From the IMG/VR virus record IMGVR_UViG_3300030035_000024: 64,000 bases of DNA. One strand, 5' to 3'. The notes beneath the pieces were generated by a model that searched no databases, was not told where the DNA came from, and was given only the letters and a program-made list of their open reading frames with translations. This document shows positions 9,342 to 51,300 of the stretch, piece after piece. The translations under genes were made by a program, and so were the position numbers. Position 1 is the first letter of the stretch. Every line of letters begins with the position of its first letter. The DNA is from a virus (Duplodnaviria > Heunggongvirae > Uroviricota > Caudoviricetes).

Positions 9342-9442
9342 TCTCCGTATTGTGCCAGAATCCTTGATTTATAAAAACAGTGGACAGGCGCATCAAGGTT
9401 TACGCTTTTCGGCGGCCAACCTAGCCCACTGAATTTACCATA

Positions 9443-9913: not shown

Positions 9914-10176
9914 AGATTGATACCTGCCTTTCGTATAAAAGAGTGCCTTGAACTGTATGTAAATCAACAGGCAGGCGGCAAGGCATTTCCGCTTTTCGAT
10001 GATCGGTCTAGCCTGTTGGTTTTACCGAAATTTATCGACTTAATAAAAAAAGAGCCGCCAAGTAAGACAAAAAATTCCTCAAAATCGAGAAATATTAATT
10101 TCTTCTTAGCGGCTCAAAAATCAAGACCGTGTGTACTTCTTCATTAAAGAAATCATACCACACAATCAGTCAAAAA

Positions 10177-22598: not shown

Positions 22599-23390
22599 TT
22601 AGCAACAACCGTTACCATATGTATTGCATCCTGCGTATGCATATGGAGCCGGAACCTGGAATGCAGGAATCGGAGCAGGATTGATTGCATTGATTAACTG
22701 CTGTGTCTGAGAAGCCATTGCAGTTGTAAGCAATGCAGACTGGCGATCCTGGGAAGCAGCACGTTTCAGATCAGAATTCTCTGCCTGTAATGTTGCAATC
22801 TTATCCTGAGTTAAGAAATCTAACAGCGCTCTCGTGTTGCTGTTCTGATTTTCCAGAAGGTCTCTGGTGTTGTTGTTCATTGTGTTCTGGAGAGCACAAG
22901 TGTTGGTAGCAAGGTTATAATTGATGCCTTGGATTGCTTCTCTTGTTTCGCAGCAACAGTTTGCTAACTGAGATTGTAATGCGTTGGTATTCTGCATACC
23001 GGCTACAGTATCAGCATTGATTGCCTGCTGAACGCCGTTGAAGCCTTGAAGCATTCCGACATTCATACCATTAAAGCCACTCTGCATGGTATTGTTAAGA
23101 GAATATGTGCTGTCACAGATACCCTGCTGAATACCTCTGATACCATTCTGAATATCATTAAGGGCGAATTCCTCATTAATATCTGAACGGGTAGCCCATC
23201 CTTGGAAGCCGGAACCATTTGTACCATTGCCACCCCAGCCACCAAAGCCGCCGAAACCGCCCCAGCCAAAGATAAGCAATATTATAATCCACCATGCCCA
23301 GCCACCGCCAAAGCCATAGCCTTCATCTGCACGGTTATTAGAGCCGCTTAATACAGCGACATCGCTTGCTGATAATCCACCATTCATCAT
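22599..23390 (-). CDS. Gly/Trp/Asn-rich membrane-anchored protein with coiled coil and Cys-rich C-terminus (263 aa)
   Basis: GGGWAWWIIILLIFGWGGFGGFGGWGGNG transmembrane/Gly-rich segment; Asn/Gln-rich heptads; C-terminus YAYAGCNTYGNGCC. Confidence 0.4.
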   Translation of the reverse strand: MMNGGLSASDVAVLSGSNNRADEGYGFGGGWAWWIIILLIFGWGGFGGFGGWGGNGTNGSGFQGWATRSDINEEFALNDIQNGIRGIQQGICDSTYSLNNTMQSGFNGMNVGMLQGFNGVQQAINADTVAGMQNTNALQSQLANCCCETREAIQGINYNLATNTCALQNTMNNNTRDLLENQNSNTRALLDFLTQDKIATLQAENSDLKRAASQDRQSALLTTAMASQTQQLINAINPAPIPAFQVPAPYAYAGCNTYGNGCC

Positions 23391-35882: not shown

Positions 35883-37334
35883 TTATTCCACTTTGATACA
35901 ATCATATCTTTCTGAATTAATTACATTTTCCATAGCTTCAATCGGATTGTATCCAAGATTCTGTAAGATTTGTTTGAAAACTGTTACAGATTGACCACTT
36001 GCAAGTTGAACGCCTTTTCTTTTTGAATCCGCATGAAATACGTCATGTCTTCTTTTAACATTCCAGAAAATAATGTTTGGAATAACGTATCCGGCTTTAT
36101 GGAACTTGTTTGCCATTTTATCATAAAACGACCAATTTCGATTTCCACAATAATCAATTTCCATATCAGAAATTACGACAATAGCTTTCGGCATTTCTTC
36201 CTGTGAAATATTATTTTTTTCTGCTATATCAAGCACCTTTTCAAATGCAGCTTTAAGGTCTGTACTATTGCCCCAATCAGCCCTTTTAGCATTATTGATT
36301 TTCTGTGAAAGGGTTTCACCCTTTAAAACAACTGTTTCTGGATTACTGGAAAATGTCATAAACAAATTGTGGTATGCCCCAACATTTCTTTCGGCAAAGT
36401 ATATTGCCAATCCGATTGATGTTGCCATTGGTCTTCCATACATTGAACCGGATACATCAGCCATAATCAAAGCGTTTGTTCCCTGTTCTATGTAATTTGG
36501 GAGTGCTTTCCATTGTGCTTCAAGAACTTTATTGTTCTCTCGTCCGTAAAGGATTTTTTCCACGATGTCATAAGGATACAAAGTTGAAGCGTTGATTTTA
36601 ACTTCTCCTTTATCAGCCTTATTAATAAAATCATTAAATCCATCTGGATCATGTTTTGCAAAAGCCTTGCGATAAATCATCATTGCACGGCTCGGAACTT
36701 CTGGATATTTAATCTCATTCCATTTACCGGCAGACATAAGGCTTTCAACAACACCGATCTGTTTTCTCATGCTACGAACAATTCTCTTAAAGTTGTAGAC
36801 TGGATAACCCAACTTCTGTGCAGTCAAGATTCCTAACTTCCTAGTTTCTCTGCTACTTGCATCAGCAGTCTTAATCCATTTAGCAAGTAAAGAAATTGCT
36901 TTTCCATCATTGAGATTTTTCAAATCTTCCTCAAATTGTTTCTTCATAGATTTCCACATGTCATCTTCAAGTGGTGTTTCAATCAGTTCATACAGATCAT
37001 CGTATCTCCCGAATACTCCAATCAAATCAAGATTCGGTCTGAGTGCTTCTGGATGATGTTCAGCCATGTAACGGATAATGGTTCGAAAAGTTTTTCTCTC
37101 TCCAAGCCCACAACGAATATCTCTTGCATAAAAAGCAATCTTTGTGGCAAAGAGTTTATCCTGTGCAAATGCTTCTGAGAATAAAGTGGTGATTCTATTT
37201 TCATCAGCTTCTCTCAATGCACCAATAGTTCCGAACAGGTCAAGTCTTGCATCGCTTGTAGTATTCAGCGCAACTGCTCCGTTTTCGGTTCTTGTAAATT
37301 TTTTTTCTTGTTTCATTGCATTTGCAAAATCCAT
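35883..37334 (-). CDS. vWA-domain protein with N-terminal helical (TROVE-like?/DUF2828-like) region, 483 aa
   Basis: MIDAS motif DVSGSM (D-x-S-x-S) with downstream T and D in a vWA-like segment (aa 290-420). About 290 aa of helical N-terminus. Flanked by tRNA-like RNAs. Confidence 0.5.
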   Translation of the reverse strand: MDFANAMKQEKKFTRTENGAVALNTTSDARLDLFGTIGALREADENRITTLFSEAFAQDKLFATKIAFYARDIRCGLGERKTFRTIIRYMAEHHPEALRPNLDLIGVFGRYDDLYELIETPLEDDMWKSMKKQFEEDLKNLNDGKAISLLAKWIKTADASSRETRKLGILTAQKLGYPVYNFKRIVRSMRKQIGVVESLMSAGKWNEIKYPEVPSRAMMIYRKAFAKHDPDGFNDFINKADKGEVKINASTLYPYDIVEKILYGRENNKVLEAQWKALPNYIEQGTNALIMADVSGSMYGRPMATSIGLAIYFAERNVGAYHNLFMTFSSNPETVVLKGETLSQKINNAKRADWGNSTDLKAAFEKVLDIAEKNNISQEEMPKAIVVISDMEIDYCGNRNWSFYDKMANKFHKAGYVIPNIIFWNVKRRHDVFHADSKRKGVQLASGQSVTVFKQILQNLGYNPIEAMENVINSERYDCIKVE

Positions 37335-37578: not shown

Positions 37579-37692
37579 TGACGAGGGATGGATTCGAACC
37601 ACCAACCTATGCCTTGTAATGGAGTAAATTGCTGTTATAGTCACAAACATGACTAATATTCTCATTGCTCTGTCCAATTGAGCTACCTCGTC
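37579..37692 (-). ncRNA. Aberrant tRNA-like RNA B (114 nt), 1 nt upstream of A; same CAUGUUUGUG hairpin plus a 27-nt insertion
   Basis: GACGAGGTAGCTCAATTGGACAGAGCA...AGTCATGTTTGTGACT...GGTGGTTCGAATCCATCCCTCGTCA. Perfect acceptor, D and T arms; AAUGAG/CUCCAUU long-range pairing encloses the insertion. Confidence 0.5.
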
Positions 37693-38633: not shown

Positions 38634-39149
38634 TTATTCTGCAAAAATCCAATCCTCTGCTAACATATCTGCTTGAGATGCAAGCCATCCCATCTGTACG
38701 CCAGATGTTCCGACAAAAGCAATGGCTTTGTTTCCGATTGCATCATGTTCACAATTTACAATTTCATTATCAGCAGTCTTATATGAAATTCCAGTGGCAA
38801 TCTGAATGTACTGTTTCTTTCCATTCCAGCCTTTACGAGACACTTTAAGTCCTCTTTTCAGATAACGGATAGCGTCACCAAATCCAAATGTTGACTGACC
38901 ACCAAGAACACCACAGTTATTCTCATCAGCAATCATCCAGTCATCTCGCTGTGTGTGCATGAAAGTATATTCTACTCTCTGTGTTTCACGGATATCGAGA
39001 ACTGCTCCCTGGCCTTGATCGGAATCTTTTGGTCTGTAATGAATCATAATCGTCTGTTTTTCATCGTCCCAACACCAGTAACCATTCCATCCTGGAAGTT
39101 TCACTTTTGCTCCCTGTTTCATAAGTTTTAATGCTTCTGAAAATTTCAT
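38634..39149 (-). CDS. Tandem DUF2829-like (W-x-G repeat) phage protein
   Basis: Two repeats: MKFSEALKLMKQGAKVKLPGWNGYW and FGDAIRYLKRGLKVSRKGWNGKKQYIQ. Start at MKFSE with RBS AAGGAGGA. Confidence 0.45.
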   Translation of the reverse strand: MKFSEALKLMKQGAKVKLPGWNGYWCWDDEKQTIMIHYRPKDSDQGQGAVLDIRETQRVEYTFMHTQRDDWMIADENNCGVLGGQSTFGFGDAIRYLKRGLKVSRKGWNGKKQYIQIATGISYKTADNEIVNCEHDAIGNKAIAFVGTSGVQMGWLASQADMLAEDWIFAE

Positions 39150-39163
39150 TTCTATATCCTCCT

Positions 39164-39340
39164 TTACCTCGTGCAAATTAAGAAAATATTCAGTGCGAAA
39201 CATATTTCTAAACAAATGCAGAATAAAATCTGTATTACGCTTGTCTTTCCTTCTTCGTCCAGTATAGCCAAAGTACCGGCAAGAACCAGAACGAAAAATG
39301 CAAGATTTACAGCTGCTCCAATTACATTAAGTGCATTCAT
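39164..39340 (-). CDS. Small membrane protein (about 58 aa)
   Basis: MNALNVIGAAVNLAFFVLVLAGTLAIL... Confidence 0.3.
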   Translation of the reverse strand: MNALNVIGAAVNLAFFVLVLAGTLAILDEEGKTSVIQILFCICLEICFALNIFLICTR

Positions 39341-40610: not shown

Positions 40611-41078
40611 TCAACTTACAATTTCAATTGGATATCCTAAGTATGCTTCCAGCTCCGAAACAGTCAGTTTGCGTGGTTTCTTTATTTCAACATCAACACG
40701 CTGTATGATATTGTCTGTTGTCTTTGCGATTGCCTTTCCGGTATAACTTTCAAGCTCTTCGTTTGCATATACATTCAAATGTTCATATCCATATGCCCGG
40801 CACCATCTTGCAGCTGAATCAACAATTTTTCTTAGCTCTTCTTGCTCATCACCAAACAACTCCGAATATCTAACCGCCTTGTTGGGGTCGTTCAAACTTA
40901 CTCCGCAAGAAGCCACAACATGTTTATATGGACTTCCAATAAAATGAAAATATCTATTCGATTCCATTGCTTTTTGGCCTTTTGGCAAGTTGAACCCTTG
41001 AGCTATTGCTTTTTTAAGCAGCTGTTCTGATTCAACGTTATTTTCTGTAACAATACACTTGTTTGTAAAATCAATCAT
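40611..41078 (-). CDS. Hypothetical (155 aa), translationally coupled to the invertase gene
   Basis: 8-nt overlap with the upstream recombinase ORF. Confidence 0.35.
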   Translation of the reverse strand: MIDFTNKCIVTENNVESEQLLKKAIAQGFNLPKGQKAMESNRYFHFIGSPYKHVVASCGVSLNDPNKAVRYSELFGDEQEELRKIVDSAARWCRAYGYEHLNVYANEELESYTGKAIAKTTDNIIQRVDVEIKKPRKLTVSELEAYLGYPIEIVS

Positions 41079-41661
41079 CTTTATCCCCCTCTAAAAGTTT
41101 ATATAGCGTGCTTCTTGAAACTCCTATAGTCTCAGCAAATTGTGCTTTTGTTATTTCTCCCATTTGCCAACTTCGTTTGGTTTCTTCAAAAAGGTCTTTG
41201 TTTATCTCTTTTTTGGAACGACCTTTATATTTGCCCTGGGATTTTGCAATTGCAATACCTTCTTTTTGACGCTGCCGAATATTTTCTCTTTCTCTTTGTG
41301 CTACATATGAGAGAAGCTGCAAAACTATGTCTGCAATCAGTGTTCCTGTCAAATCTTTGTTTTGCGTAGTATTAAGCAACGGCATATCCTGTACAATGAT
41401 ATCCGCTTCAATCTCTTTTGTAATTTTTCGCCATTCAGCAATAATCTCTTCGTAGTTTCTTCCAAGTCTATCAATCGAATGGATTATCAGAATGTCACCT
41501 TTATGAAGAGAAGCAATCATTTTCTGATACTCTGGACGATTAAAGTCTTTCCCAGATTTTTTATCCATATAAATTTTTTCAACACCATCTGTTTTCATTG
41601 CTTCAATTTGTCTCGCTTCGTTCTGATCTGCTGTTGAAACTCTTACATATCCTACTTTCAT
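41071..41661 (-). CDS. Small serine recombinase (resolvase/invertase family, about 196 aa)
   Basis: MKVGYVRVSTADQ...DKKSGKD...IDRLGRN catalytic motifs. C-terminal HTH ITKAQFAETIGVSRSTLYKLL. RBS AGGAG. Confidence 0.8.
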   Translation of the reverse strand: MKVGYVRVSTADQNEARQIEAMKTDGVEKIYMDKKSGKDFNRPEYQKMIASLHKGDILIIHSIDRLGRNYEEIIAEWRKITKEIEADIIVQDMPLLNTTQNKDLTGTLIADIVLQLLSYVAQRERENIRQRQKEGIAIAKSQGKYKGRSKKEINKDLFEETKRSWQMGEITKAQFAETIGVSRSTLYKLLEGDKDD

Positions 41662-41798
41662 ATATACACGCTCCTGTTTCTTTATAAAACAATTATACAC
41701 TATAATGTGTGTGTTTTCAATAGCAAATTACACGTTTAAGTGAATTTTAATTGATTTTTATAACATTTGCGTTTATTATGTAAGTAGGAGGTGTTTAT

Positions 41799-42045: not shown

Positions 42046-42789
42046 TTACTTTCTAATCAATCCTTGTCCTTGCAGTAAAAGTCTAAATGTTTCTTTACCT
42101 TTCACAGTGATATATGTCTGAACATTCGAATATCCAAACGGTGTTGAGAAATCTTTCATCTGGAAAAGCCCAGCTTTCCTATACGGTTCATAGGGTTTAA
42201 TAATATTGTGCCTATCACGGTAGATATAACCGTTTTCCGTAAGCCACTTATTAAACGCTTTAGGTGGAATGTGAAATTCCTTTGCTGCATCTCGAAAAGT
42301 TGTAAGGAGCCTATTATCTATCAGACTGTCGAAATAATCAGCTTTAGGCTTCTGTTCCTGTACTTTCTGTTCAAGTAACTGCTTTTCCTGTTGTTCTTCA
42401 ATCCATCTTTTAGCTCGTTCTATCGGATCAGCTATCTGGTAAGAATCTTGTTTCTGACCGACTTCATACTTCCCAGTCTTACGAATGGACGGAAGTACTT
42501 CTGATGTGACCCAATGTTTAAATTCTTTGGCTTTTTCAAGCTTACTACTAAAAATTAACGAGAAAAGACCGGATTCATTAATAGCTATGATATTCCTTGT
42601 CTGTGTCCCGTCATAAAATGGTACTTCTGCCTTATCTTCCAACTCTACATGCCTTTGTATATCTCGACTACCATTTTGGTACCCGAGGGCTGTTGCAACA
42701 TCAATTCCAACAAACCACGGAACACCATTTATCGTTACTGTTCTTACGCTTCCAAATTCTGGATTGCTAAAAATCATCATATCGTTCAT
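42046..42789 (-). CDS. Phage antirepressor (Bro-N N-terminal plus KilA-C-like C-terminal domain), 247 aa
   Basis: FGSVRTVTINGVPWFVGIDVATALGY Bro-N signature. Confidence 0.6.
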   Translation of the reverse strand: MNDMMIFSNPEFGSVRTVTINGVPWFVGIDVATALGYQNGSRDIQRHVELEDKAEVPFYDGTQTRNIIAINESGLFSLIFSSKLEKAKEFKHWVTSEVLPSIRKTGKYEVGQKQDSYQIADPIERAKRWIEEQQEKQLLEQKVQEQKPKADYFDSLIDNRLLTTFRDAAKEFHIPPKAFNKWLTENGYIYRDRHNIIKPYEPYRKAGLFQMKDFSTPFGYSNVQTYITVKGKETFRLLLQGQGLIRK

Positions 42790-42869
42790 CCGTTATACCT
42801 GCCTTTCTGAGTATTGCCTTGTTTTTAGTATGGCAGAGAAACAGTTAAGGCTTACTGCTTGTCGTGTTC

Positions 42870-43085
42870 GAATCACTATCCCTGCCATGTTAAGGAGAGC
42901 TTTTTTGTTTTTTCGGGCGGTTTCGGTGGTAACTACCGCTGACCGGAGGTTTATATATACCCCCTCCCGGTCATCCAGTACGGACGCTGGCAAGTCAGCC
43001 CACCGCCCAATGGGAACCGCTGCCCTTGCCCGGTCGCTGTTTATCGTAAGTCTTCGGCGGTGGTCAAGGAAATGCTATGCAAAAT
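42870..43085. other. GC-rich (about 60%) structured noncoding island inside a 425-bp intergenic gap
   Basis: Several G-C-rich hairpins (GACCGGAGG...CCTCCCGGTC; GGCGG/CCGCC) in otherwise about 35% GC DNA. No credible ORF. Confidence 0.35.
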
Positions 43086-43214
43086 CTATTGTCATATTGC
43101 ACAAAAAACAGTGTTTTATAGAATGTCTTTTTAGGGTGTACCCTATTTGCACATTGCGTATTACTAGATATAGAATCCGTTTTCTCGTAATCACAACATA
43201 TAGTGTTTTTACTG

Positions 43215-43805
43215 TTATAGTTCCGGCTTTTCCATCTCTGGAAGTTGTAAAGCGGCTTTGTGCTTCTCTGCGATCTGCTGCGCAGTCTGCTGTGGTACAC
43301 CATACTGTTGTGTAGCTTGCACCGGTGCAGTTTCTGCCATGCCATAGGCGGCTTTTGCAACAAATATCAAATTCGCATTTGTTCCGGTCTGATTATGTAA
43401 TCTATTGATTGCGCAGTTTTTACAAATATCAAACCATTTTTTAGCCGTGTCACCATGTGACGAGTTTGTTCTATACACTCCATTCATCCAGTCAGTAAAC
43501 GTTGTACGATTAATCCCAACTAAAAAGCTAAATACTTCTAGGGTTGGTAATACATGATATTTACTGCATAATCTCACATAAGTATTAAACATTTTATCTA
43601 ATAGCTCTATATTGTCATTACTTGGCTTTTGTATATGATCTGCAATATAAAAAATCATATCTACAAAGCTATCTGATACTTCTTTCTTATAGTTTTCGTT
43701 ATCTGGTGATATACATAATACAGTATTTATATATTCATCAGCATATATATTAATATTATCTAAATAGATATCTACGTCTTGTATATTTACTGTATTATCT
43801 TTCAT
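43215..43805 (-). CDS. Hypothetical (196 aa)
   Basis: ORF-track ORF, preceded by a terminator/attenuator hairpin. Confidence 0.35.
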   Translation of the reverse strand: MKDNTVNIQDVDIYLDNINIYADEYINTVLCISPDNENYKKEVSDSFVDMIFYIADHIQKPSNDNIELLDKMFNTYVRLCSKYHVLPTLEVFSFLVGINRTTFTDWMNGVYRTNSSHGDTAKKWFDICKNCAINRLHNQTGTNANLIFVAKAAYGMAETAPVQATQQYGVPQQTAQQIAEKHKAALQLPEMEKPEL

Positions 43806-43840
43806 ATTATCACCTCACTTTAGCACGTTAATTTGTAAAT

Positions 43841-43907
43841 AAAAAAGAGAATGTCACCAGGTAAAGCTTATTCCCGGAAAATTTCCGGGTGTTCGGGTAC
43901 ATTCTCT
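43841..43907 (-). terminator. Rho-independent terminator/attenuator (minus strand) in the 5' leader of the 43215-43805 gene
   Basis: AGAGAATGT...[nested CCCGGAAAATTTCCGGG palindrome]...ACATTCTCT followed by TTTTTTATTT on the minus strand. Confidence 0.45.
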
Positions 43908-44364
43908 AAAACTTAAAATAAAATATTCTGTTTTCTTTGTTGCTGATACCTTAACACAGTCTTTAATATCTTGTCAAATTTAATTTTGCATAAAATAAAA
44001 CCCTTTATTTTGTCAGTAATTAATAAATAATATTTGGCATATTATATTATAATCTTCATTTATATTTATATTATATATGTTATTATACGGTACTGTATAG
44101 AATATCTTTTAATAAACTCTTGCCTTAGGAATCTATGGAGGGGTAAAAGATATATTATATATAATACATTTAGACATAATAAAAACCAGACCATTACCGA
44201 GCTTTAATGCCTGGATGATCTGGCTTGTTAACTGCTACTTTATTCTGTTCAGGTGCAAACGATTTCACAATAACCACCCCTCCATGAGTTCCCGCAACCA
44301 TCGTTGATAATAACGTTACTGTAAGTTTTCCAGAAAGTCAAGCCAAAAATAAAAAACATTTTTC

Positions 44365-44395
44365 TTGACAAAAATTAAAAACCTGTGCTATTAAT
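44365..44395 (+). promoter_or_regulatory. Sigma70-like promoter (TTGACA-18-TATTAAT)
   Basis: Near-consensus -35 and -10 elements read from the sequence. Confidence 0.5.
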
Positions 44396-44401
44396 ATCTT
44401 A

Positions 44402-44530
44402 ACAGCTTCGGCGGTGGGGCTGTTAACCCCTCAAACGTCGTTACGCCGCCACAAATAAGCATTTTAAAAGCCCCGGGATGATTTCCAAGGGCTTTTTCTT
44501 TTGGTTGGGGCGATTGTTCGCCCCTTTTGG
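44402..44530 (+). ncRNA. Candidate small RNA (about 125 nt) between promoter and tandem terminators
   Basis: No RBS or ATG. Nested hairpins GGCGG[GGGGctgttaaCCCC]...CCGCC. Two consecutive intrinsic terminators. Confidence 0.4.
44468..44528 (+). terminator. Tandem rho-independent terminators (the second is bidirectional)
   Basis: AAGCCC-15nt-GGGCTTTTTC, then GGGGCGattgttCGCCCCTTTT. On the minus strand the second also terminates the 44531-44779 gene. Confidence 0.6.
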
Positions 44531-44689
44531 TTATTCGTTTTCCTTCGTGGTTTCTTTGAGCAGTCCGGCTGAGTGTTTACGGATTTCGTTGTTCATTTCT
44601 CGGACTTCCTCAATGGTTTCGCATTTGTCTGTCGCTGTTGTGATCAACCAAGCAATAAACTGTAACTGTTTGTCTGTCATGTTCTCCAT
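44531..44689 (-). CDS. Small hypothetical (about 52 aa)
   Basis: MENMTDKQLQFIAWLITTATDK...; start uncertain. Confidence 0.3.
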   Translation of the reverse strand: MENMTDKQLQFIAWLITTATDKCETIEEVREMNNEIRKHSAGLLKETTKENE

Positions 44690-44753
44690 TTTTTCTCCTT
44701 TCTGTGGTTTATAAGGTTCTTTGTTCCTTACAAGTATTATTATATCTCTATTT

Positions 44754-45017
44754 TTAGTGATTGTCAATATTTTGTTCACATATTTTAGAGATTATTTTTT
44801 CTCTATCGTTGTCTGTTTCAACATATTTTATAATATCTCTAGGTTGCATTTCAAGAACGGCACAAAGTCTATTCAAATTGTCTAAAGAAATCGTTGTGTC
44901 TCCTTTTTTAAATTTTTGCATTGTAGCTTGTCCGAAAAGCCCTGTATTTTTAGCTTTTGTGGTATTTATACCGACTTTTGCAAGCTCTTCTATAACATTA
45001 ATTTTATATTGTAGCAT
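44754..45017 (-). CDS. XRE-family HTH regulator (Cro/CI-like, 87 aa)
   Basis: TTISLDNLNRLCAVLEMQPRDII. Confidence 0.55.
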   Translation of the reverse strand: MLQYKINVIEELAKVGINTTKAKNTGLFGQATMQKFKKGDTTISLDNLNRLCAVLEMQPRDIIKYVETDNDREKIISKICEQNIDNH

Positions 45018-49506: not shown

Positions 49507-51219
49507 TTATAGTGCTAAAAGGTACTTATATTTGAAAAATACCATATCTTGTGTCTTAATGCAAGTTTTCCTACTAAATATCTTGTGTTGTTCTGGATGT
49601 AGAGTTAAAATCATATCGTCAGAACGGCACAAGGGAAACCCCCATTTTTCAAGGCCTCCAGACCTTAATTGAAATGTCAGTGTTGCACATGTAACCGCCA
49701 ACGGTTCAACGGTAATTTTCTCAAAAAGTTCATTAACAATCTGTCTGTTAATATCTTGTGGAGTAACGCCTTTGAACTTTTCTAGCTGTTCTTTAATAGC
49801 ACTTAATTGTATTTCTACTGGCTCTGGACTTTTGGTATTTTGGATTTCTAGAATATGGCTCTCAATCTGCTTTATCTGCTTCACGTATTCTTTATTTCTT
49901 GAAATAAATTCATCATCAGATATTTTTCCATCCAGATTATATTCCAGTATTTTTTCACGTTTTTGTTTTAACAGATCAATCTGTTTTTCAAGTCGTGAGA
50001 TTTCGTTTTTATTGTCTGGAATGTTTTTGATCGAGGACTGCAAAATTTCAAAATATTCCTCCAAAATGCTATCAATGTTTTCAGAAGATTTATTTATCAA
50101 TTCTGCAATTATTTCTTTCAGTTCTGATTCTGCCAGTCCAAATGAATCACATGAAGCTGCTCCGTTTTTTATCTTATAACTGCATACCCATCGAACATCT
50201 TCTTTTCCTCGAATATAATGCTGCTTCATCCAGTATGGAGCTCCGTCATTTGCGCAGAAAAGTTTTCCAGTGAAAATATTTTCGTTTTTAAAAGAGGTTC
50301 TTCTTGATTTTATAGCTTCTCCACGCTCTCTTAAATATGCGTTTGCCTTTTCCCAGGTAGTTTCATCAATGATCTGCGGTACTCTGGAACCATCATCCTT
50401 AAACATTATCCATTCTGACTGTGGAAGAAATTCTTGTTTCTTGGTGAACATATCGACAACCTTTACTTTTCCTCCACAATAGTATCCTTTGTATTTTGGA
50501 TTCCGAATAATATTTTTTATGACATCCCGGTTGATTTTCCCACCTTTGAAACTTCTGTATCCCATATCCCAGAGTTTTTTTTCTATTCTTGGCGTAGATA
50601 TTCCGGAAGCGTAATCTTGAAAAATCATTCGAACCATGTCCGCTTCTTCTGGAACCAGTTCGAGTTTTCCTTGATTGTTTGAGTATCCATACATTCTGTG
50701 CCCGAGAACAACACCATTTTTGATTGACTGTGCGTGTCCAAATTTTACTCTTGAAGAAAGCTTGCGGATTTCGTCCTGCGCTACCCCAGCCATAATAGTA
50801 AGTCTGAACTCACTATCATCATCAATAGTGTTAATTCCATCATTTTGGAACCACACGCATACGCCGTAAGATAACAATTCCCTGGTATATTGGATGCTGT
50901 CAAGAGTATTTCGTGCAAATCTTGAAATTTCTTTCGTAATAATCATGTCAATTTTTCCGAGCTTTGCATCTCTGAGCATTCTTTGAAATTCTTCTCTTTT
51001 ATCCGCATGTATTCCAGAAATACCATCATCAATGTAAGAACCAGCAAACTTCCATCTGTTGTTAGAATGTATCAGCTCTTCAAAATGTTCCTCCTGGTGC
51101 TTAATGGATGCTTGCTGTTCAACTTTTTCAGTAGAAACCCTGGCATAATAAGCAACATTTAGTTCAATGTCGTAAATAGAGCAATTTCTTAATTTTTCTC
51201 TGACATAATAAATATTCAT
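49507..51219 (-). CDS. Large serine recombinase (phage integrase, about 570 aa)
   Basis: YARVSTEKVEQ...DDGISG...SRFARN catalytic domain; recombinase domain; zinc ribbon CANDG...CSYK...C; coiled coil. Start at MNIYYV with RBS AAGGGAG. Confidence 0.85.
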   Translation of the reverse strand: MNIYYVREKLRNCSIYDIELNVAYYARVSTEKVEQQASIKHQEEHFEELIHSNNRWKFAGSYIDDGISGIHADKREEFQRMLRDAKLGKIDMIITKEISRFARNTLDSIQYTRELLSYGVCVWFQNDGINTIDDDSEFRLTIMAGVAQDEIRKLSSRVKFGHAQSIKNGVVLGHRMYGYSNNQGKLELVPEEADMVRMIFQDYASGISTPRIEKKLWDMGYRSFKGGKINRDVIKNIIRNPKYKGYYCGGKVKVVDMFTKKQEFLPQSEWIMFKDDGSRVPQIIDETTWEKANAYLRERGEAIKSRRTSFKNENIFTGKLFCANDGAPYWMKQHYIRGKEDVRWVCSYKIKNGAASCDSFGLAESELKEIIAELINKSSENIDSILEEYFEILQSSIKNIPDNKNEISRLEKQIDLLKQKREKILEYNLDGKISDDEFISRNKEYVKQIKQIESHILEIQNTKSPEPVEIQLSAIKEQLEKFKGVTPQDINRQIVNELFEKITVEPLAVTCATLTFQLRSGGLEKWGFPLCRSDDMILTLHPEQHKIFSRKTCIKTQDMVFFKYKYLLAL

Positions 51220-51300
51220 AGTGCATTTCTCCCTTAATAAACAGGGAGTGGAATCATATAAAGTATAACACCTCATATAACTCCACTCAATACATTTTCG

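Follow-up and report, generated by a model that had tools for sequence, protein, structure and literature searches.

The 64,000-nt stretch of viral DNA analysed here (the window; IMG/VR record IMGVR_UViG_3300030035_000024, Caudoviricetes) contains a compact unit at 44365–44503 on the plus strand that very probably is an independent small RNA (sRNA) gene with a transcript of ~100 nt. Comparison with related phages supports the predicted gene, its promoter, its terminator, and an H-type pseudoknot that would form the first ~50 nt of the RNA, and it is highly likely that a functional structured sRNA is produced from the unit. An earlier reading of the window, made from its sequence alone, had proposed a phage sRNA at this site, and that core idea is well supported by a conserved locus, a conserved promoter, covariation that includes G·U pairs valid on the plus strand, and the lack of a downstream gene on the same strand. 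As to what the RNA acts on, the explanation that we find best overall, and that we put forward tentatively, is a conserved pseudoknotted phage sRNA that has as its target the leader of a divergent transcript, here called P1.

The fold energy of the window sequence by itself is unremarkable (z −1.9 to −2.6 on the plus strand and −4.1 on the minus strand), and the case for more than chance rests on comparison with relatives. IMG/VR holds hundreds of these, mostly human-gut contigs of ~75–85 kb, and 368 viral contigs carry a relative of the 196-amino-acid (196-aa) gene that lies to the left of the unit. An nhmmer profile of 44360–44503 finds the unit in 240 of 277 loci, many of which overlap on the same contigs, always divergent from the 196-aa gene and 540–700 bp upstream of it. 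Conservation in related phages had been suggested as a check, and the unit is retained where the 196-aa protein is only 69–77% identical, and 131 distinct sRNA sequences are found among the relatives. A relative from a Blautia metagenome-assembled genome (MAG), with a 196-aa protein that is 58% identical, shows the same architecture in a different sequence. The unit is present in one copy per window. Searches of GenBank phages and PLSDB plasmids with blastn using the region, and of bacterial genomes with an exact pattern, gave no matches; the looser pattern CTTCGGCGGYGG-N15-45-GCCGCCA returned mostly chance matches from other environments, and 29 of the 115 loci that it added are true homologues by nhmmer. 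Because distant relatives of the 196-aa protein (54–59% identity) sit in Blautia and Dorea MAGs, the host of the window phage is probably a member of the Lachnospiraceae. At the sRNA position, the Dorea sp. MAG (L280) has a different unit, likewise free of open reading frames (ORFs), with TTGATT-17-TATTAT, ~125 nt, G+C-rich hairpins, and a terminator, about 500–700 bp upstream of its 196-aa homologue; small RNA genes may be gained or exchanged here with unusual frequency, in the manner of a hotspot.

Directly downstream of the unit, genes lie on the opposite strand in nearly all of 84 downstream sequence types, and because these genes are convergent with the unit in nearly all relatives, the unit is best described as stand-alone and not as a leader. 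On the minus strand, the closest ORF extends no further than 44531 and so leaves the conserved unit free. Compared across types, neither strand of the unit has a conserved ORF, in line with the earlier description of the unit as ORF-less; a tiny protein conserved in relatives, which had been named among the findings that would overturn the sRNA proposal, does not appear, as the short ORFs differ from type to type and several types have no ATG.

The promoter was described in the sequence-only reading as TTGACA-18-TATTAAT, and this arrangement is present at 44365–44395. It is predicted to be a strong sigma-A-type promoter. The spacer carries a TRTG "−16" motif (TGTG, 44384–44387) and ends in TGTGc; TRTGn "−16" extensions are typical of Gram-positive promoters. 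The pattern TTGACW-N12-14-TRTGnTA is rare, occurring twice in the window (in the 44365 unit and at 43952–43977 on the minus strand) where 0.14 occurrences are expected. Across relatives, the −35 element, the TRTG motif, and the TA of the −10 element are kept while the spacer varies in at least six sequence types, with complete differences between types; retention of the hexamer elements while the spacer differs is the signature of a promoter. A consensus scan skipped this promoter, as it demands a T at the last position of the −10 hexamer and TATTAA does not have one. Promoter spacing predicts a start near A44401, and the RNA is predicted to end near 44500.

The −10 element is followed by a G+C-rich stretch and then by two hairpins, each with a run of U. 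These hairpins had been interpreted as tandem terminators of one unit, the second of them bidirectional. Both hairpins and both U-tracts are present, but they do not form one unit, as a mosaic boundary lies between them. In nearly all relatives, intergenic homology extends from 43806 to about 44501–44506 and ends right after the U-tract of the first terminator. The second terminator is found only in a few relatives that have the same neighbouring module, such as L048, L045, and L232. Because homology ends between the two terminators, we assign the second to the variable neighbouring module and the first to the sRNA. Bidirectionality was attributed to the wrong hairpin: on the minus-strand side the second terminator is followed by AACCAAAAG, whereas the first is flanked by AAAA on one side and UUUUU on the other. 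With this A-tract on its 5′ side, the first terminator could also stop minus-strand transcription arriving from the neighbouring module.

The 5′ part of the RNA is predicted to contain two interleaved stems, S1 and S2 (Table 1), which give an H-type pseudoknot when both form. Nested GC hairpins had been proposed for this region. The pairings on which that proposal was based, GGCGG/CCGCC (44410–14/44446–50) and GGGG/CCCC, are present in the window, but the nested fold is not conserved among relatives, and the inner hairpin (GGGG 44416–19/CCCC 44427–30) is present in some types only. What is conserved is the pseudoknot, both helices of which are universal among the types. In a five-segment extraction, S1 and S2 together have 90.8% of cells paired versus 76.3% in shuffles (0/500) and 29–61% in slid controls, and ten pairs are changed on both sides, namely all seven of S1 and three of S2. 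The natural alignment A3, with 18 sequences in register, has a paired fraction of 96.8% of cells. Compensated S1 variants (5′/3′) include AACAGC/GCUGUU, AACAAC/GUUGUU, AACAGAC/GUCUGUU, AACGAGC/GCCCGUU, and CAGGAC/GUUCUG, along with several G·U variants; S2 is paired in 92.9–100% of cells, with variants from C-G to U-A and U·G/C-G/U-A. Over the two stems together, G·U pairs, which are valid on the plus strand only, outnumber internal mismatches. Loop lengths across types are 3 nt for L1, 1–3 nt for L2, and at least 13 nt for L3, which would suffice to cross the helix grooves. The invariant part of the sRNA is the pseudoknot core (CUUCGGCGG...GCCGCCA) and not L3, whose sequence is hypervariable. 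L3 is a candidate recognition region. The single-stranded linker that follows S2 is purine- and A-rich throughout, but its sequence varies among subfamilies.

Three features of these data temper the pseudoknot argument. The S1 counts were obtained with a 3′ strand picked among three offsets during extraction, the S1 signal from both-side changes derives in part from a one-pair insertion of one lineage, and much of the S1/S2 covariation derives from few lineage-level events. In addition, RNAalifold shows column 25 covarying with column 10 (S1) and with column 58 (an S2 extension), and S1 and the extended S2 may therefore alternate instead of coexisting.

The sRNA family, its pseudoknot, and its genomic partnership have no entry in Rfam 15. 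A search with Rfam covariance models, which had been suggested as a check, identified no family: the window gave no match at gathering score, 43700–44700 gave chance-level matches only with E up to 10 (the top one, His_leader, reached 18 bits where 49 would be needed, with E 2.9), and eight relatives of other sequence types gave none. A literature search aimed at known analogues, and not at this family, did not find the family, the pseudoknot, or the partnership. Several known kinds of RNA were considered and rejected. A pseudoknotted antitoxin RNA of a type III toxin–antitoxin system, which would come as tandem repeats ahead of a toxin gene, does not fit because the unit is single copy and has no same-strand gene downstream. 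A Y RNA was considered because the phage encodes the DUF2828 protein described below; in a Y RNA the two ends would form a stem with each other, whereas the 5′ end of the sRNA is engaged in S1 and its 3′ end in the terminator hairpin, and the DUF2828 gene is ~7 kb away. Mimicry of tRNA-Asn was considered for the CUGUUAA loop, which resembles the anticodon loop of that tRNA; the loop is not conserved in other types.

The sRNA unit lies back-to-back with the promoter of the long main minus-strand operon, the two −35 elements being 23 bp apart. The sequence-only reading had placed the unit in a lysogeny switch region next to XRE genes. This link is not conserved, as the adjacent module varies among relatives; what stays beside the unit is P1, the divergent promoter, together with its leader. 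The pattern TTGAC(A/T)-17-TAnnnT of P1 is retained in three different versions of the segment, and transcription is predicted to start near 44305 (AACGAUGG...). The transcript would open with an invariant AACGA and holds GGAACUCA(U)GGAGGGG; the motifs AACGAUG and GGAACUCAUGGAGGGGU in the 5′ part of the leader are conserved in all subfamilies. In transcripts that read through the strong terminator of this leader, T1, the latter motif would pair with a segment downstream to form a long-range helix that encloses T1. This helix has 93.3% of cells paired versus 79.9% in shuffles, four pairs are changed on both sides, and its G·U pairs are valid on the minus strand. The arm variants are GGAGGGGU/ACCCCUCC, GGAAGGGC/GCCCUUCC, GGACGGGA/UCCCGUCC, GCAAGGGC/UCCCUUGC, and AAGGAGUA/UACUUCUU. 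By its folds and this covariation, the P1 leader itself qualifies as a bona fide structured RNA. A perfect 10-bp inverted repeat had been reported in this region; it exists, with its right arm at 44276–44285, but the left arm is at 44135–44144 and not at 44118–44127, and the arms are 131 nt apart rather than 148. The repeat coincides with the two arms of the long-range helix. An invertible segment bounded by this repeat was considered, given the invertase gene at 41071–41700, and rejected because the segment is oriented alike in every class.

Upstream of the 196-aa gene, a second promoter–terminator unit, P2-T2, follows the first. The minus-strand terminator or attenuator that had been noted here is real: T2 is a large terminator-like hairpin at 43846–43907 with a U-tract, located ~35 nt before the ribosome-binding site (RBS) of the 196-aa gene (ATG 43805). 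Two promoter–terminator units in series before a long operon imply control by read-through, and P1-T1 and P2-T2, together with the helix enclosing T1, suggest antitermination-type control of the long minus-strand operon. Neither an antiterminator gene nor an alternative RNA structure was found. Between the two units, a 16-bp palindrome is kept in nearly all subfamilies and in the Dorea-MAG relative, is perfect in some (TATACAGTACTGTATA), and may be a protein operator. The interval 43806–44530 had been called noncoding, and we agree, as it has no conserved ORF. The minus-strand ORF at 44194–44270 (24–35 aa, with GGAGGGG as a possible RBS) was considered as a leader peptide for translational attenuation and rejected because it is absent in other classes; the GGAGGGG in question is one arm of the covarying RNA helix.

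Table 1. Elements of the sRNA unit and of the divergent leader region, in window coordinates
Feature	Coordinates	Strand	Basis or remark
sRNA promoter: −35 TTGACA 44365–70, 18-nt spacer, −10 TATTAA(T) 44389–44395	44365–44394	+	sequence
S1 5′ strand UAACAGC, extreme 5′ end of predicted RNA	44400–44406	+	pairs with 44419–44425
Loop L1 UUC, 3 nt	44407–44409	+	between S1 and S2 5′ strands
S2 5′ strand GGCGGUG	44410–44416	+	pairs with 44444–44450
S1 3′ strand GCUGUUA	44419–44425	+	also loop of the non-conserved inner hairpin
Loop L3 ACCCCUCAAACGUCGUUA	44426–44443	+	hypervariable across types, with inserted hairpins in some (alignments)
S2 3′ strand CGCCGCC	44444–44450	+	pairing counts
A-rich single-stranded linker ACAAAUAAGCAUUUU	44451–44465	+	unpaired in folds
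First terminator (intrinsic, the sRNA's own): arms 44466–78/44484–96, U-tract 44493–44502	44466–44503	+	fold, compensated hairpin variants
Second terminator GGGGCGAUUGUUCGCCCC UUUU: 44507–44524 plus UUUU	44507–44528	+	sequence; part of variable module
Promoter P1: −35 TTGACT 44336–41, 17-nt spacer, −10 TAACGT 44313–18	44313–44341	−	sequence
P1 leader RNA, ending at T1 (hairpin 44185–44226, U-tract 44176–44184)	44176–44305	−	folds
Long-range helix, 5′ arm (GGAACUCAUGGAGGGGU)	44276–44292	−	pairs with 44128–44144
Long-range helix, 3′ arm, in read-through P1 transcripts; helix encloses T1	44128–44144	−	covariation
Palindrome TATACGGTACTGTATA, near-perfect, 16 bp	44084–44099		between the two minus-strand units
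P2-T2 unit: −35 TTGACA 43972–77, TRTGn, −10 TAAGGT 43948–53, leader, T2	43836–43977	−	sequence, folds

Among possible mechanisms, we single out the P1 leader as the most likely target of the sRNA, a proposal that stands at somewhat less than even chances. The 5′ pseudoknot and the 3′ terminator hairpin would protect the sRNA from exonucleases. Pairing would take place between L3 (ACCCCUC...CGUCGUU) and the beginning of the P1 leader (AACGAUG...GAGGGGU), which is made only ~100 bp away. It would change how the leader folds and hence the fraction of transcripts that pass T1 and T2 to enter the 196-aa gene and the rest of the long operon. A more elaborate version is doubtful: that the sRNA and leader constitute a control module of the main operon made of RNA only, in which L3 captures the leader 5′ end and the ACUCAG/GGAGGGG arm and so blocks a structure needed to pass T1 and T2, with the L3/leader types acting as specificity classes akin to heteroimmunity within a prevalent family of Lachnospiraceae phages of the gut.

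Several observations are consistent with pairing between L3 and the leader. In a duplex analysis of L3 against the whole window, the leader 5′ region ranks third of ~10,600 windows. Type-G sRNAs have ~20 bp of near-continuous complementarity to leader nt 1–25 (−41 kcal/mol, z −3.8, 1 of 300 shuffles); the z values for this type are −3.8 and −2.9, and those for other types run from −0.7 to −2.0. The sequence CUGAGU, which complements the invariant leader motif ACUCAG, is carried on three different L3 insert hairpins. In type E and in the Blautia relative, CCUCGUUA/CCCC-UCGUU pairs with leader UAACGAGG/AACGAGGGG. Between the L192 type and A2, a U-A to C-G exchange inside the proposed sRNA–leader duplex is compensated.

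A number of findings weigh against leader targeting. For the window's own type, the duplex is −22 kcal/mol with z −0.7, and 23% of shuffles are as good; in most types, the duplex has a z of only −1 to −2. Swaps of sRNA and leader between types give no clean specificity, type A shows L3 and leader variants in free combination, and at five loci natural recombinants place a type-A sRNA next to a type-B leader. The UCGUUA segment is missing from types B, D, and F, and the internal GGGG/CCCC hairpin is another possible reason for the CCCC of L3. An antiterminator alternative to T1 was not seen by eye, inspection being the only means applied. Finally, four loci (L134, L171, L176, and L178) keep the P1 leader from the −10 element on and lack both the sRNA gene and the P1 −35 element, which suggests that the leader works without the sRNA in some lineages; the module that replaces both in these loci is transcribed in the leader direction, and the breakpoint is within the P1 spacer.

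About as likely as leader targeting is that the sRNA is real and its target lies elsewhere, be it a host mRNA, another phage transcript contacted through the linker or L3, or a protein that the RNA binds or sequesters (a nuclease, a chaperone, or a phage RNA-binding protein). Its closeness to P1 would then merely be a matter of gene arrangement. An invariant pseudoknot core, as opposed to an invariant L3, fits a protein-binding or structural role, and unrelated insertions are tolerated in L3; the statistically weak leader complementarity of most types and the lineages that keep the leader without the sRNA point the same way. However, a scan of the window with the linker gave no site at a translation start, its top matches being within genes or antisense, and the linker sequence varies among subfamilies. 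A target elsewhere also leaves the ~20-bp leader complementarity of type G and the recurring CUGAGU loops unexplained.

It is improbable that the unit is an insulator in which a bidirectional terminator and an outward promoter, or a fully complementary antisense RNA, block read-through from the neighbour into P1, with no role for the RNA in trans. The first terminator does have an A-tract and a U-tract, it sits exactly on the mosaic boundary, and neighbouring genes converge on it in nearly all relatives. An insulator would need no pseudoknot, yet S1 and S2 are kept through compensatory and G·U changes across types. These same changes bear on whether the minus strand is the functional one, as a structured 3′ untranslated region or terminator region of the XRE-containing module. 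On that strand the G·U and U·G pairs of S1 and S2 turn into A·C mismatches, the conserved promoter and U-tract face the plus direction, and the upstream module is not conserved whereas the unit is; although the minus strand folds slightly better (z −4.1 versus −2.6), we regard a minus-strand function as very improbable.

We give about as little credence to a very small protein or to a site that acts as DNA (an operator palindrome, for example, or a site for packaging or replication). The unit does contain short ORFs (one of 14 codons on the plus strand, and 17–23 codons on the minus strand from an ATG at 44463–61), but their frame, length, and sequence differ between types. Similarly, TTAACAGC-N12-GCTGTTAA is an inverted repeat in DNA as well, but asymmetric changes of the G·U type fit RNA pairing and not a DNA palindrome; and although many metagenomic contigs end within 43865–44490, the ends are scattered over ~600 bp and not at one coordinate, as expected of assembly breaks. 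The least probable alternative, a cis-acting leader or riboswitch-like attenuator of a downstream plus-strand gene, would match the typical riboswitch layout of pseudoknot followed by terminator and could use GGGGCU (44416–21) and AGCCCC (44468–73) as an antiterminator by eye in the window's type, but that antiterminator is missing in type B, no plus-strand gene is next in nearly all relatives (an orientation that goes far to refute this reading), the flank is a mosaic boundary, and no riboswitch family matches even with E up to 10.

The source of the window is a temperate phage of ~80 kb from a large human-gut group. Its minus strand encodes the large terminase, portal, and major head genes, and the accessory part of the long minus-strand array holds genes for a Tad2-like (anti-Thoeris) domain protein (38634–39215), a Hin/Gin-type DNA invertase (41071–41700), and a Bro-N/KilAC antirepressor (42046–42789). 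The window also has a large serine recombinase gene (49507–51276), XRE-type regulators, and four to five tRNA genes. On the left of the 43806–44530 gap is the 196-aa gene (43215–43805), the first of the long minus-strand array, and on the right is a small minus-strand module with an HTH_26 protein (44754–45017) and an ORF of 53–82 aa that ends at 44531. Sequence searches of Pfam and the PDB gave no match for the 196-aa protein, PHROG gave one weak match (small terminase subunit, E 0.0075), and its AlphaFold model (predicted local distance difference test score of 64) had no Foldseek match with E <0.5. Because these searches were uninformative as to function, the operon cannot confidently be called "late" or "packaging". 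Contigs of relatives (L040–L116 and L002–L031) often end within 43865–44490, with clusters near 44046–44092 and 44171–44182. A genome terminus in the gap was considered for these ends and judged improbable, as they are scattered over ~600 bp of AT-rich, strain-variable sequence and are probably assembly breaks.

Other parts of the window may hold further structured RNAs. A gap of 425 nt (42790–43214, minus strand) separates the 196-aa gene from that of the antirepressor. It has a G+C content of up to 58% in a region of ~30%, is 86–99% identical in relatives, and shows clear helix covariation in GGCAAG.../...CUUGCC, CCAGGGAAGC/GCUUCCCUGG, and UCCGGU/ACCGGA. Rfam gave nothing for this gap with E up to 1. 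The motif GGCGG(U/C)GGGCUG is common to the gap and the sRNA, and the gap probably holds another unannotated structured RNA. An sRNA target at 43052 on the plus strand was considered, based on the 12-nt motif CTTCGGCGGTGG, and rejected: the motif is exact in few variants, most relatives have CCACUGCCG(A/C)AGG, and the site belongs to a separate structured element. A third copy of CTTCGGCGGTGG, at 23302 on the minus strand, falls within Gly codons. Within the tRNA cluster, a 483-aa protein with DUF2828 and DUF7788/VWA domains (35883–37334, minus strand; "RNA-binding protein" in PHROGs) is encoded. Its gene adjoins a stretch of 114 nt (37579–37692) that matches the tRNA model apart from a long insertion and is not called by ARAGORN; candidates for it are a tRNA with an intron and a tRNA-like RNA that partners the DUF2828 protein. 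Two Rfam int-alpA RNA motifs (9362–9431 and 9946–10018, minus strand; 53.6 and 45.4 bits) flank a 174-aa ORF.

To our knowledge, phage regulatory RNAs are known almost exclusively from a few model phages of Proteobacteria. In a recent review, the term "Gram-positive" is absent from the text (PMC12197685). The sRNA described here is a candidate with good support, and the uncultured phages that carry it are common in metagenomes of the human gut. Its pseudoknot is compact, its loop comes in a series of natural variants, and the structured leader next to it is an obvious possible target. If the proposed link between the two is true, the locus provides a testable model of RNA control over a phage structural and accessory operon; if it is false, the locus still yields a new RNA family and two further unannotated structured elements.

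As a kind, a small regulatory RNA made from a compact promoter–terminator unit of a phage is already known. The use of an RNA to decide terminator use has a parallel in the Firmicutes plasmids pT181 and pIP501, in which an antisense RNA acts on the nascent leader; those RNAs are cis-encoded and fully complementary and work through a defined terminator/antiterminator alternative, none of which applies to the unit in the window. P1-T1 and P2-T2 resemble two units in which a terminator directly follows a constitutive late promoter, the λ PR′-tR′ unit that gives 6S RNA, and StxS, in having a consensus promoter, a strong terminator within ~100–130 nt, and a long operon behind (PMC7547250). Unlike those systems, the window has two tandem units and a covarying helix around T1, and no Q-like antiterminator or qut-like site was identified in it. 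The sRNA unit itself can be compared with λ OOP and P22 sar, which overlap their target genes with perfect complementarity, whereas the window unit overlaps no ORF and its conserved partner is a divergent, non-overlapping leader (PMC12197685). All three are ORF-less promoter–terminator units in regulatory regions of temperate phages, with RNAs of ~70–100 nt, convergent with a neighbouring operon.

Closest to the proposed action on the P1 leader are two known phage RNAs. The c4 antisense RNA of P1/P7 blocks translation of icd and thereby expression of ant (Citron & Schuster 1990, as cited in PMC12197685). As outlined there, c4 is likewise a short structured phage RNA with non-overlapping complementary segments in a target encoded nearby and with allelic recognition sequences; set against that outline, the proposed target in the window has no conserved RBS or ORF, and its type specificity is not clean. 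For the CI RNA of P4, PMC4825925 describes, with reference to Sabbattini 1995 and Briani 2000, termination caused by pairing of the RNA to seqA and seqC. CI RNA is processed from the leader transcript that it regulates, whereas the sRNA of the window has its own promoter on the opposite strand and its own terminator; the hosts are Enterobacteria in one case and probably Lachnospiraceae in the other, the two RNAs have no similarity in sequence or structure, and the effect on termination is known for CI RNA and only proposed for the sRNA. The likeness is one of logic. In both, a small untranslated phage RNA, by known or proposed pairing with an operon leader that carries a terminator, would decide downstream transcription, and in both the recognition sequences vary among related elements.

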